From positions 139,295-203,294 of IMG/VR virus record IMGVR_UViG_3300033388_005412: DNA of 64,000 nucleotides. One strand, given 5' to 3'. Source of the DNA: a virus. Lineage: Duplodnaviria; Caudoviricetes. Below, piece by piece: positions 26,366 to 35,551 of the stretch; within the stretch, counting starts at the first letter, position 1, and the number at the start of each line of letters is the position of its first letter. The position numbers and the translations under genes were made by a program. The notes beneath the pieces were generated by a model. That model was given only the letters and a program-made list of their open reading frames with translations, did no database searches and was not told the DNA's origin.

Positions 26366-26725
26366 ATGAATATTGTAATGTATTTTGATGGTAATAAAAA
26401 CTCGTCCGGAACATCATGCAGTTACAGACTGCAGGCTGGGAAAATGGTGAGACGAGAAACCATAAAGCTGAGTGATATGACTGTACCGGCCGCCGAATAT
26501 AATGGTCTTATAAAAGGTTTAGAAGTACTTAAAAAAGAATTTTATCCTAAGATAGATCTTACCATATACGGTGACAATAAAGTTGTGATTAACCAAGTTG
26601 CTCAAAGATGGGAAACAAAAAAAACTTATTTAAGACAGTACAGAGATGAAGCTCTGAATATATTGGAGAATCTTCATAGTTATAGGATTTTCTGGAAACC
26701 GCGCGGTGAGAATAAAGCGGGATAA
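26366..26725 (+). CDS. RNase HI-like protein
   Basis: YFDG, AAEYNGLIKGL, IYGDNKVVINQV, WKPRGENK pattern of short RNase HI domains. Confidence 0.75.
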   Translation: MNIVMYFDGNKNSSGTSCSYRLQAGKMVRRETIKLSDMTVPAAEYNGLIKGLEVLKKEFYPKIDLTIYGDNKVVINQVAQRWETKKTYLRQYRDEALNILENLHSYRIFWKPRGENKAG

Positions 26726-26824: not shown

Positions 26825-27424
26825 ATGAAAAAAGGAACATGGATTACAAAAGATGGCATTGTCAAGAAAATAAAGAATATGACATTAAAACATTTAGAAA
26901 ATGTTGAAAAAATGTTAAGCAAAAAAATTTCTTATATGGAAGACAATAAAATTCCGATGATTTCTGACTTTTCGCCGGGTTTATATTATCCTAATTTTAT
27001 GAATGTTTTTATTAAAAGAAATGAGATTATAGAGGAAATATGTAAACGTGAATTACATGATATTGGTGAATTAGAAATGATTGAGACATAGGAGGAGAAA
27101 AATGATTTTTATTCAAAAACTGATTTTTGAGTTGTTATTAAGTTATCCAACATGGTTGATGGTGATTGATATTATATTTACATCAGCTATTGTTATAGCT
27201 GCTGGTTACATTATATTTGCAATAGTGAGGTATAAAAAATGAAATTTAAAGTTCAATGGGAAGAACAGAGGTCTATCATAATCGAGGCCGATACCGCGGA
27301 TGCCGCTGAAGAAATGATGATGAATGGCGAATTTGATGGTAAAGACGTCGAATCCGGAGAGTTAACGTCGATGCCTGAAGCGTATGAATTGAAGGATGAA
27401 GAAAAATTTAGGAGGAAAGAATGA
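26825..27424 (+). other. small hypothetical genes (26825-27091, 27239-27424)
   Basis: Co-directional ORFs in the operon; 27239 overlaps the spoVG-3 start. Confidence 0.55.
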
Positions 27425-27987
27425 ACATTAAAGTAAGAAGAATGGTTCCGCACACAAGCGGAAAGATTAAAGCGTTTGCTGACATAACAATCGGCGATAC
27501 ACTTGTAAAGGGGTTTAGAGTTGTTGAGGGAACTGGTGGCAAAGATGATTTTATAGGCTTGCCGAGTATTAAAGGCAGTGACGGGAACTGGTATGCTAAT
27601 TTTAAGCCCGGCGAAACTCTTATGAAAAGCATAAATGATGTAATTTTCAAATCATATATAGATTTGGAACCACAGACCAACTTGCCGCTTAATGATAAAA
27701 AAGCGCCAAGTGATATAGCAATACTTTCACTTGATGCTGAAAAATCACTGTATAGTGACGCAACGACATTTTATGGAGAACCGGTTAAATATTTCGCTGA
27801 GGGAAATGTCAAGGCCTATGATTTTATGGGCTATCGTTTCATGAGACAAAATCCTGTTAAAAAGGACAAGGACGGTAATTTGTCAAAATGGGCGCAGATG
27901 GTTAAGGATGGCGATAAAGTAACCTGGGTTGTCCAGGGTGGAGTTTATATTGGGCGTGTCGTAAACTCGGTATATCAGCAGTGCTAG
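27421..27987 (+). CDS. spoVG: SpoVG domain fused to an unknown C-terminal domain (copy 3)
   Basis: GKIKAFADITIGDTLVKGFRVVEG..FIGLPS..DGNWY; about 100 extra residues. Confidence 0.75.
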   Translation: MNIKVRRMVPHTSGKIKAFADITIGDTLVKGFRVVEGTGGKDDFIGLPSIKGSDGNWYANFKPGETLMKSINDVIFKSYIDLEPQTNLPLNDKKAPSDIAILSLDAEKSLYSDATTFYGEPVKYFAEGNVKAYDFMGYRFMRQNPVKKDKDGNLSKWAQMVKDGDKVTWVVQGGVYIGRVVNSVYQQC

Positions 27988-28043
27988 TATAATGGAATCG
28001 GCTTGATTTCGGTTTCCGTATATCAAGTTACATCATTCTGTTA

Positions 28044-28123
28044 TGCGAACGGTGGTGGCGTGGTAGCCTGACATCGTTGAGCTTTCCAAGCTCGGATGTC
28101 GCAGACCAACTGCCCACCTCGCA
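28044..28123 (+). ncRNA. cloverleaf ncRNA E with elongated arm ending in a tRNA-Gly(UCC)-type anticodon stem-loop
   Basis: TGCGA..GGTGG/CCACCTCGCA, U, GGC-GTGGTA-GCC, U, GACATC/GATGTC + TGAGC-TTTCCAA-GCTCG, GCAG-ACCAA-CTGC. Confidence 0.75.
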
Positions 28124-28167
28124 CTGTGAAATAGAATTTGGAGGAAAAAAATTGAAAAGGAGGAAAA

Positions 28168-28816
28168 ATGACTTTACCTAAATTGATTGGAATGAATGCA
28201 ATCGAATTTCAGAAATGGAATGATGAAGGTGATGAGGGGATAAGATCATTAAGTATTCTGTATTATCTGTATATGCTGAATGTTCAATCAAAACAAATTC
28301 GCCATGACGTTAGAGAGAATAGTGAAAATGTCGAAAATATTTTAAAGATTTTGGACAAATTAGAAATTAAAGCTAAAAGAGAGCCCGTTATGCTGTCTAC
28401 TGATAAAATGGATGCGTTAAATAAATTGATAGCAGGAATGGAAAAGATACAATTGAAAATAGGAGGATGAATGTCATTGATAAAAATTAAAGAACCGGAT
28501 GAGCAATGTATGCATCCGGAACATAATCCGCCAATGCATATTTATTTAGAGCCTGGAACATATGAACATACTTGTCCAGCGTGTGGTAAAACTGTGGTTT
28601 TTGAAATTCCGCAAATTACAATTTAAAGGAGGAAAAATGGAGTATGATGAAGTGAAAATCAGAGTTCCTAAAGTAGGAAAGGGTATTAGTGATATGTCAA
28701 AACTGGTCGCCGTGTCTGTTGCGAATACAATAGGTGTCGGTCTGGCGGTTGTTGCTGACAAACTGATTAATTTTGGTAAAGAAACTGAAAAAGAAGGAGG
28801 TGAGAAAAATGATTAG
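28168..28816 (+). other. three small hypothetical genes (28168-28470, 28471-28626 with CPAC, 28637-28816)
   Basis: AGGAGG SDs. Confidence 0.6.
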
Positions 28817-29702: not shown

Positions 29703-30137
29703 ATGATTAAATATATTAATGGTGATTTATTCACTTCAAAAAATTCATTAGCCCATTGCATAAGTAAAGATTTTAAACTAGGTGCCGGCATTGCCAAAAC
29801 ATTTAGAAGGAAATATATCAAGGAAATTTTAAAAGCAAGAAATGAAATGATTGACATTGAAAAATCGCTTGTTGATGTCGGCAAATGTCTGGTTGCTGAT
29901 GTCGGCAGTTGCTATGTTTTTAATCTGATTACAAAAAAGTTTTATTATGAAAAACCAACTCTCAAATCTATGGAATCGGCATTGGAAAATATGTTCGCGA
30001 AGGCGGAAACAATTAATGTTGAGACAATCGCAATGCCCAGAATAGGGTGTGGACTTGACCGATTAAAATGGAACGATGTTGAGAAATTAATTATTAAACA
30101 CCAGGGAAATATTGATGTCGCTGTTTATAGTTTATGA
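29703..30137 (+). CDS. macrodomain protein (TARG1/DarG-like ADP-ribosylhydrolase)
   Basis: GDLF..SLAHCISKD..LGAGIA..F, FNLITK, IAMPRIGCGLDRLKW. Confidence 0.88.
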   Translation: MIKYINGDLFTSKNSLAHCISKDFKLGAGIAKTFRRKYIKEILKARNEMIDIEKSLVDVGKCLVADVGSCYVFNLITKKFYYEKPTLKSMESALENMFAKAETINVETIAMPRIGCGLDRLKWNDVEKLIIKHQGNIDVAVYSL

Positions 30138-30143
30138 AAACAT

Positions 30144-30216
30144 AGGGATGTCGTTCAATTGGACAGGACCGGTGATTTTGAGTCACCTAATCGAGGTTCG
30201 AATCCTTGCATCCCTG
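30144..30216 (+). tRNA. trnQ: tRNA-Gln (anticodon UUG), no encoded CCA
   Basis: AGGGATG/CATCCCT acceptor, GTTC/GGAC D-stem, GGTGA-TTTTGAG-TCACC, CGAGG-TTCGAAT-CCTTG. Confidence 0.95.
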
Positions 30217-30404
30217 TTTATATCTGATGATGCAAAAGGAGATAAATCATGAATGAAACATATTGTCCAAAATGTAAGAATTCATTGAAAAGTGTTGGAT
30301 TTACCTGTGCGGGACAGAGTCTATATCACTGTCCTATCTGTGAGCGCTGGTGGGAAATAAAAGAACTTCCTAATGAAGATGAATCAACAAAATAAGGAGG
30401 ACGA

Positions 30405-35341: not shown

Positions 35342-35404
35342 TAGTAGCTCGTTCACCATGTGTGAAAGGAGTACGGATATCGTTTAATTACGATGTCTGA
35401 TTTT

Positions 35405-35514
35405 GTCCCGGTGAGGTTGTACTCTGACGGATTAGACCTTGAAACTATAGGTTATCCTTCCGTGTGATGTTTTAACGTATAAGGTGAAGTTGCGGCCGAC
35501 TAAGCTGCCCGGGC
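35405..35514 (+). ncRNA. cloverleaf ncRNA G (homolog of F)
   Basis: CCCGG/CCGGG, U, GAG-GTTGTA-CTC, ACGGA/TCCGT with ACCT-TGAAACTAT-AGGT, GCGGC-CGACTAA-GCTGC. Confidence 0.7.
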
Positions 35515-35522
35515 TTTACTAC

Positions 35523-35551
35523 TTGACAACATACCATATAAAATACATAAT
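35523..35551 (+). promoter_or_regulatory. sigma70-type promoter abutting the sigma-factor start codon
   Basis: TTGACA-N17-CATAAT; no SD before ATG 35554 or 35560. Confidence 0.7.

Follow-up and report, generated by a model that had tools for sequence, protein, structure and literature searches.

The element at positions 28044 to 28123 of the window (the whole analyzed stretch of 64,000 nucleotides, which forms the final 64 kb of a 203,294-bp IMG/VR record with terminal repeats and about 34% G+C) belongs to a large family of small tRNA-shaped RNAs that are carried by uncultured phages and lack annotation. Members of this family share the core order P1-U-GGC[GUGGUA]GCC-U-GAC...GUY-GCAG[ACCAA]CUGC-P1' and occur in about a dozen viral contigs as well as in at least 120 contigs from metagenomes. 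The family is undescribed in Rfam 15 and in the literature searched, and is a variant of the tRNA-like stable RNAs of phage tRNA regions.

In the window, the element has 61% G+C and occupies a 180-nt gap between two ORFs of the + strand (27421-27987 upstream and 28168-28470, of 100 aa, downstream). The upstream ORF encodes 188 aa with an N-terminal SpoVG domain (E = 2e−7). Other nearby ORFs of the same strand encode an RNase H-like domain (RVT_3; 26366-26725; E = 2e−11) and a Macro domain (29703-30137; E = 3e−11), the latter ending 6 nt before a tRNA-Gln gene. This tRNA-Gln, 2 kb downstream of the element, was the nearest tRNA identified by ARAGORN and Rfam, so that the window element lies outside any tRNA array.

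The analysis of the sequence and its folding with ViennaRNA confirmed the four-way cloverleaf reported in the earlier note, every piece of which was found at 28044-28123 (Table 1), including the absence of a variable loop. The minimum free energy was −36.4 kcal/mol, compared with −25.05 ± 3.6 kcal/mol for 200 dinucleotide shuffles (z = −3.15; one shuffle was equally good). The opposite strand also folds, and the non-chance nature of the fold is shown mainly by its conservation. P1 comprises 9 to 10 pairs around an AC bulge, and this arrangement of 9 bp with a 2-nt bulge is atypical for the family. The middle arm starts with a 6-bp GACAUC/GAUGUC stem followed by UGAGC, UUUCCAA, and GCUCG, with the UCC at 28085-28087. 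The minimum free energy structure adds two U-A pairs that leave a UCC triloop, and the 7-nt "anticodon loop" is thus one of two compatible readings.

Table 1. Positions of the element, its parts, and associated features in the window
Feature	Position	Strand	Basis
Upstream hairpin CUUGAU-(14 nt)-AUCAAG, 17 nt 5' of the element	28002-28027	+	100% identical to L002
P1, 5' strand (acceptor-like): U-GCGA, bulge AC (28049-50), GGUGG; 28044/45-28048 and 28051-28055 pair with 28114-28122/23	28044-28055	+	Sequence, fold
Single linker U between P1 and H1 (U8-like)	28056	+	Invariant in 8-sequence alignment
H1, D-arm-like 3-bp hairpin: GGC (28057-59), loop GUGGUA (28060-65), GCC (28066-68)	28057-28068	+	Sequence, fold, compensatory variants
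UGGU of the H1 loop, proposed partner of ACCA of the H3 loop (28105-28108)	28061-28064	+	Ensemble centroid, family pairing
Second single U, between H1 and middle arm	28069	+	
P2, hypervariable middle arm; here a 31-nt hairpin	28070-28100	+	Base GAC/GUY conserved, remainder unalignable
H3, reduced T-arm-like hairpin: GCAG (28101-04), loop ACCAA (28105-09), CUGC (28110-13); runs directly into P1	28101-28113	+	Compensatory change in 4/4 pairs
P1, 3' strand: CCACC-UCGC-A	28114-28123	+	Sequence, fold, family alignment
Diverged second copy	35401-35521	+	R1, 26.8 bits, E = 5e−5 over the 203-kb genome

The nearest relative, at locus L002, has an upstream flanking protein 91% identical to that of the window phage. 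The outer stem, both small hairpins, and the upstream hairpin are common to the two loci, which differ by compensatory changes in P1 (U-A to C-G) and H3 (G-C to A-U); several G.U pairs in their alignment are workable only on the + strand. The upstream hairpin was 100% identical between these two sequences, the only ones compared, against 83 to 88% for the flanking coding DNA. It may be a leader, a promoter, or a protein-binding site, perhaps of the element's own transcript. The 5' core string was found in 14 viral contigs, about half of which also carried the matching 3' half, and other patterns revealed further members. An 18-mer of the 5' core (GTGGCGTGGTAGCCTGAC) matched at least 120 metagenome contigs. 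A covariance model built from eight family members, R1, gave 105 matches at an E value of ≤0.001 in 100 loci, corresponding to 101 distinct sequences. The window element matched R1 over its full length (69.2 bits; E = 7e−17), with every core string present. Retrieval of the metagenome members through one constant 5' string overstates the conservation of the 5' half, and the constancy of the linker U, which is part of the 18-mer, is not independent in these members. A pattern with free loop letters, seeking covariation of the loops, added only 2 viral contigs.

Essentially all members of the family come from DNA of uncultured phages. A blastn search of the locus against 50,697 cultured phage genomes gave zero matches, and that of the element alone (E ≤ 10) gave only chance matches within coding genes. 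Among 185,579 species genomes, we found one real member, in a 4-kb contig of a Saccharibacteria MAG, and four other matches that were chance or marginal. Rfam 15 lacks the family, with no match on the window element (E ≤ 10) or on the members at 15 loci (E ≤ 1). Several phage contigs carry two members each (L047, L034, L131, L127, and G005, which is the contig of L019), always with different arms, and the copies of L127 lie in tandem, 4 nt apart.

The phage of the window also has two copies. The search of its whole 203-kb genome with R1 returned the canonical element (69.2 bits) and a diverged one (Table 1) made of P1 CCCGG/CCGGG, a compensated H1 GAG[GUUGUA]CUC, a 66-nt arm, and H3 GCGG...CUGC. 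This second copy is flanked by a terminator-like hairpin (35374-35399) and by a sigma-70-like promoter with 11 of 12 consensus positions (35523-35551). Its arm holds a CCUUGAAACUAUAGG hairpin, of a type common to L079, L094, and L062. Outside the window, within G000:C1:134747-135438 (− strand), the genome encodes tRNAs of unusual appearance: a tRNA-Thr(UGU) of 86 nt with a long extra arm and a tRNA-Leu(UAA) of only 78 nt with a short variable region. Bacterial tRNA-Leu normally belongs to the long-arm class.

The alignment of the 101 distinct homologs, which was fitted to R1, supported the fold. Paired cells amounted to 98.2%, compared with 81.8% in column shuffles and 19 to 52% when the partners were slid. 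Changes on both sides of a pair were found in 6 of 7 pairs of P1, in all 4 pairs of H3, and in 2 of 3 pairs of H1, and none of 500 shuffles reached the observed values. The compensatory variants include ACAG/CUGU, GUAG/CUAC, GCUG/CAGC, and GCGA/UCGC in H3, and GGA/UCC (second copy on L047) and GAG/CUC (second copy of the window) in H1. GAC/GUY, the base of the middle arm, is almost constant in the family. An alternative Y-RNA-like fold, with a long-range helix of GGC...GCC plus UGGU...ACCA, was rejected, since it is disrupted by H3 variants such as GUAG/CUAC that keep the local hairpin. The UGGU and ACCA of the two loops can pair in 97% of cells, with changes only to G.U or U.G and no double change; a loop-loop contact resembling the tRNA elbow is therefore plausible. 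The strand of the RNA is fixed as + by the G.U pairs, which fit only this strand (pair 29-226 is G.U in 83 sequences), and by the flanking genes and tRNAs, which are co-oriented with the element.

The uninterrupted P1 is most often 8 to 9 bp long, which together with the 4 bp of H3 makes a limb of 12 to 13 bp. Since P1 ranges from 2 to 20 bp, a strict tRNA-like ruler is not valid for all members. A U|G step marks the 5' edge of P1 in 32 of the 101 members, and an A follows the 3' strand in 28 of these 32. Such ends resemble the −1/+1 context of RNase P cleavage and a discriminator base, in only a third of members. The near-invariant core spans about 40 to 45 nt in phages without common proteins. 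Conservation of some 40 nt exceeds the needs of a scaffold defined by shape only, which hints at a specific partner or activity. This core is the strongest unexplained feature of the family, and its sequence may reflect a specific partner.

Family members are found in several phage tRNA arrays, on the same strand as the tRNAs and with spacers of 0 to 6 nt. Among the 100 R1 loci, eleven contain tRNA genes. The element is placed between tRNA-Val and tRNA-Asp in L120 (spacers of 3 and 6 nt), begins directly after tRNA-Cys in L082, and follows tRNA-Ser in L103 and tRNA-Phe in L119. In L127, the two tandem copies precede a tRNA-Ala-like gene, and in L121 and L039 the element also lies within or beside a tRNA cluster. 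The tRNA cluster is co-oriented with the element in L120, L082, L103, L119, L121, and L127, whereas in the window the tRNA is 2 kb away. The sequence CCA was encoded in only two of the members seen (L051 and L125).

With moderate confidence, we interpret the element as a non-decoding, tRNA-shaped scaffold RNA that would be processed like a tRNA and would carry a lineage-specific insert. P1 would stack on H3 to form a limb of about 12 to 13 bp, like the acceptor/T limb of tRNAs, and H1 would stack on the middle arm. The pairing of the two loops (UGGU/ACCA) would form the elbow, giving an overall tRNA-like L. An RNA with such a limb, stacking, and elbow would be a substrate for the host tRNA-processing enzymes (RNase P and 3' trimming), which would excise it from phage transcripts and stabilize it. 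If so, the conserved core would act as a scaffold for processing and stability and the variable arm as a lineage-specific payload, which in the window phage happens to resemble an anticodon stem-loop. The placement in arrays, the 12- to 13-bp limb, and the U|G...C|A ends of a third of members point indirectly to RNase P as an enzyme that would cut the RNA at this edge of P1, on the 5' side.

The middle arm varies from 10 to 111 nt and is unalignable across the family. In L002 it is an unrelated, branched insert of 54 nt, within a core and flanks that are 83 to 100% identical to those of the window. Canonical T-arm-like hairpins (UUCRANN loop, at least 3 pairs) were found in 13 of 98 arms, compared with 0.5 ± 0.7 in dinucleotide-shuffled arms. 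This enrichment is real. Hairpins of this kind (GGGUUCGAUUCCC and similar) lie in the arms of L101, L069, L131, L051, L080, and the second copy of L034, as well as in those of L103, L117/L025, L105, L078, and L031, either 3 to 4 nt after GAC or immediately before the closing strand. The arm of L103 resembles a tRNA-like fold nested in the element and closed by a separate stem of 7 bp. Other arms have in common YUGAAAY or GGUGCAAACC hairpins.

The element is not a tRNA in the usual sense. On the window, ARAGORN and Rfam 15 made a single call, the tRNA-Gln at 30143-30217, and none at 28044-28123; at E ≤ 10 over 27900-28300, Rfam gave two meaningless snoRNA matches elsewhere and none on the element. 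A canonical or mitochondrial-type tRNA was rejected, as ARAGORN gave no credible call in bacterial mode, with relaxed thresholds, or with introns allowed. H3 has 4 bp and a 5-nt loop (ACCAA) versus a 5-bp T stem and a 7-nt UUCRANN loop. Instead of a 7-bp acceptor stem, P1 has 9 bp with a bulge in the window and mostly 8 to 9 bp in the family. The arm at the anticodon position is hypervariable in length and sequence among homologs. The rejection by tRNA detectors and the lack of a conserved anticodon arm in the family support the view that this geometry is unsuited to decoding.

The same earlier reading took the arm as presenting the anticodon loop of tRNA-Gly(UCC), and of this mimic only the non-decoding, tRNA-shaped RNA stood. 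The loop lies within the hypervariable arm, its 7 nt are not conserved in any homolog, and the UCC is gone from the unrelated arm of L002, an outcome that the earlier note itself had named as refuting its reading. The middle arm is different in almost every phage, so that the glycine-like UCC loop is peculiar to this locus and does not define the molecule. Anticodon-like hairpins (YU-NNN-RN loop, at least 4 pairs) were present in 7 of 98 arms, as against 6.7 ± 2.5 in dinucleotide-shuffled arms, and those on 5-bp stems numbered 3 against 2.5. This frequency, equal to that of shuffled arms, indicates that the family is not an anticodon display device. An arm acting as a tRNA-Gly(UCC) anticodon decoy, for an anticodon nuclease, a tRNA-sensing defense, a T-box, a synthetase, or a modification enzyme, is accordingly improbable, and nothing found favors such a role for the arm of the window. 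The 5-bp stem and the loop U-U-UCC-A-A do match the U33/A37 layout of an anticodon loop, and the exchange of the arm between close relatives is what a possible arms-race module would be expected to show. An identical GAGC-UUUCCAA-GCUC is carried by the tRNA-Gly(UCC) gene of a phage (L196), but this was one of the 117 viral-contig matches listed for the 15-mer. The other 116 were outside tRNA genes and look like chance, on which ground mimicry of the host tRNA-Gly was rejected. Moreover, no homolog keeps the loop, anticodon-like hairpins are not enriched, and the minimum free energy structure reduces the loop to the UCC triloop.

A cis-acting regulatory RNA, with P1 as the stem of a terminator or attenuator or with a ligand-sensing aptamer controlling the downstream gene, is also very unlikely in our estimation. 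Many members show a U-run 0 to 6 nt after P1 and, soon after, a ribosome-binding site and start codon; L007 has a perfect TTGACT-17-TATAAT promoter just upstream of the element; and the junction nucleotides (U, U, and GAC/GUY) are invariant. However, different loci have unrelated genes downstream of the element, members that lie between tRNA genes lack a gene to regulate, and the window copy has neither a U-run nor a terminator call after P1. The U-runs are equally explained by a discrete small RNA ending at its own terminator. The all-against-all comparison of the ORFs within 4 kb of the 100 loci revealed no conserved protein partner, the largest neighboring family (YopX) being found at scattered positions in 6 loci. 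This lack of a common neighboring protein family argues against a gene-specific cis-regulator.

Other tRNA-shaped RNAs lie beside members in L112 (− strand, about 30 nt downstream), L099, L030/L089, L127, L104, L008, and L029. Each combines long paired ends and one U with a D region UGGCG...UGGUAGACGC (or UGGCG..GGUAGACGC), a canonical T arm (GCAGG-N7-CCUGC), and, where a tRNA has its anticodon arm, a large insert. Some were reported by ARAGORN as odd tRNAs, e.g., "tRNA-??? (aa)" for L030 and a tRNA-Ala of 85 nt for L127, and R1 did not detect the neighbors at E ≤ 0.001. The paired ends, the single U, the D-like UGGCG with UGGUAG, the unrelated insert, and the GCAG(G)/(C)CUGC stem are common to these neighbors and the family. 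Unlike the family, the neighbors keep a longer D loop and a canonical T arm of 5 bp, whose UUCGAxx loop has 7 nt. In the family, both loops are shortened, to GUGGUA and ACCAA, and are complementary to each other by Watson-Crick pairing. The present core (UGGCG-UGGUAG-CC and GCAG-ACCAA-CUGC) reads like a shortened version of the neighbors' body, suggesting a common descent that rests on short common strings.

These resemblances also bear on a chargeable mimic of tRNA-Leu, which would receive CCA and be leucylated without decoding, serving as a sponge for LeuRS, an amino-acid donor, or a modulator of the sensing of uncharged tRNA. The LeuRS of Escherichia coli recognizes A73 and the tertiary core without reading the anticodon. 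The body of the element would keep enough class II traits, namely, the D region UGGCG..UGGUAG and an A at the discriminator position, and its 5' core resembles the D region of the neighboring tRNA-shaped RNAs and of class II tRNAs (UGGCGAAACUGGUAGACGC in L112). The A after the 3' strand of P1 is found in the 28 of 32 U|G-ended members and in the window (GCGA.../...UCGC-A). Still, both the D and the T loop are altered and shorter, P1 mostly has 8 to 10 bp instead of 7, CCA is encoded only in L051 and L125 among the members seen, and the resemblance to tRNA-Leu is tentative. We therefore give this mimic little chance of being correct.

Stable RNAs of unknown function in phage tRNA clusters have been known since T4. 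Species 1 and 2 of T4 (rnaC and rnaD) are non-decoding small RNAs encoded directly after tRNA-Arg on the same strand, a placement like that of several family members. T4 rnaC is partly tRNA-like and ends in a canonical GGUUCGAAUCC T arm, where the family has a 4-bp stem with the loop ACCAA, and the defined four-way core with a swappable arm also sets the family apart from rnaC and rnaD. The two T4 RNAs were rejected as homologs, since R1 reached at most 8 bits on the T4 tRNA region, at a site other than rnaC and rnaD. The tRNA-like domain of tmRNA has a topology like that of the family, with acceptor-like paired ends and a large insert at the position of the anticodon arm. In contrast to tmRNA, the family has no ARAGORN tmRNA call and lacks a canonical T arm, G3.U70, and a tag reading frame, and its inserts are only 10 to 111 nt. 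Two other RNAs with complementary loops, the Alu-like part of SRP and phi29 pRNA, presumably differ from the element in the order of their arms.

Allo-tRNAs have an 8/4 or 9/3 configuration of the acceptor and T stems (Mukai et al., PMC5389517). Their longer acceptor-like stem and 4-bp T-side stem give a limb of about 12 bp (PMC5389517), as in the family, and they too occur in phage tRNA clusters. Yet they decode, and they have an anticodon arm, a 7-nt T loop, and a long variable arm, whereas the family has no conserved anticodon arm and, unlike the allo-tRNA configuration, no fixed length of P1. In YrlA (RF02553), the ends of the RNA form a Ro-binding stem instead of an acceptor-like stem. 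A Y RNA bound by Ro was rejected, as the element has no RF02553 match and the 203-kb genome has no TROVE gene. Like the family, YrlA is a noncoding RNA that mimics part of a tRNA, and it is also found in phages (PMC4201824). Partial YrlA matches below the gathering threshold of 69 bits were found in L120 (2244-2304, − strand; 33.5 bits) and L119 (39-100, + strand; 29.4 bits). They cover the tRNA-like part of the model, lie inside phage tRNA arrays, and are distinct from the present family.

HDV-like theta ribozymes and hammerheads process RNA beside phage tRNAs. The least probable of the explanations we considered is that the conserved core is an undescribed self-cleaving ribozyme processing phage transcripts or tRNA arrays: it would account for some 40 near-invariant nucleotides around a compact junction with freely varying peripheral stems, for genomes with more than one copy, for the confinement to phages without a partner protein, and for elements abutting tRNA 3' ends (L082), but Rfam gave no match to hammerhead, twister, twister-sister, pistol, hatchet, HDV-like, or hairpin ribozymes (window at E ≤ 10; 15 loci at E ≤ 1), the core could not be mapped onto the HDV-like strand order, the conserved bases are mostly in helices and two complementary loops and not in unpaired junction strands, and no candidate cleavage dinucleotide is conserved in all members. 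The HDV-like (theta) mapping, made by hand on the window sequence only, was rejected: the segment following H1 has no upstream strand to pair with, and the strand order does not fit.

The tRNA-shaped scaffold thus remains our preferred reading. A bolder version of it, which we consider rather unlikely, is a modular system of uncultured phages in which a constant, miniature tRNA-shaped scaffold, with an elbow of four Watson-Crick pairs formed by shrunken D- and T-like loops, would hijack host tRNA processing and deliver rapidly exchanged payloads as decoys, aptamers, or antisense effectors. Their targets would be host tRNA-directed defenses or tRNA-binding enzymes, and the payloads would include the T-arm hairpins (13% of members) and, in the window phage, the anticodon stem-loop look-alike.

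The family is a compact and sharply defined relative of the T4-type stable RNAs, abundant in environmental phages (at least 120 contigs through one 18-mer), invisible to tRNA finders and Rfam 15, and absent from 50,697 cultured phage genomes. In joining a core of about 45 nt that hardly changes to an arm that is exchanged freely, it resembles a natural version of the "tRNA scaffold" of biotechnologists, which serves to express foreign RNAs. If the scaffold reading is true, the family would be a catalogue of functional RNA modules made by phages, and also a small new model for how RNase P and related enzymes recognize tRNA shape. Should the core instead be catalytic or act with a partner of its own, the family would be a new class of RNA.
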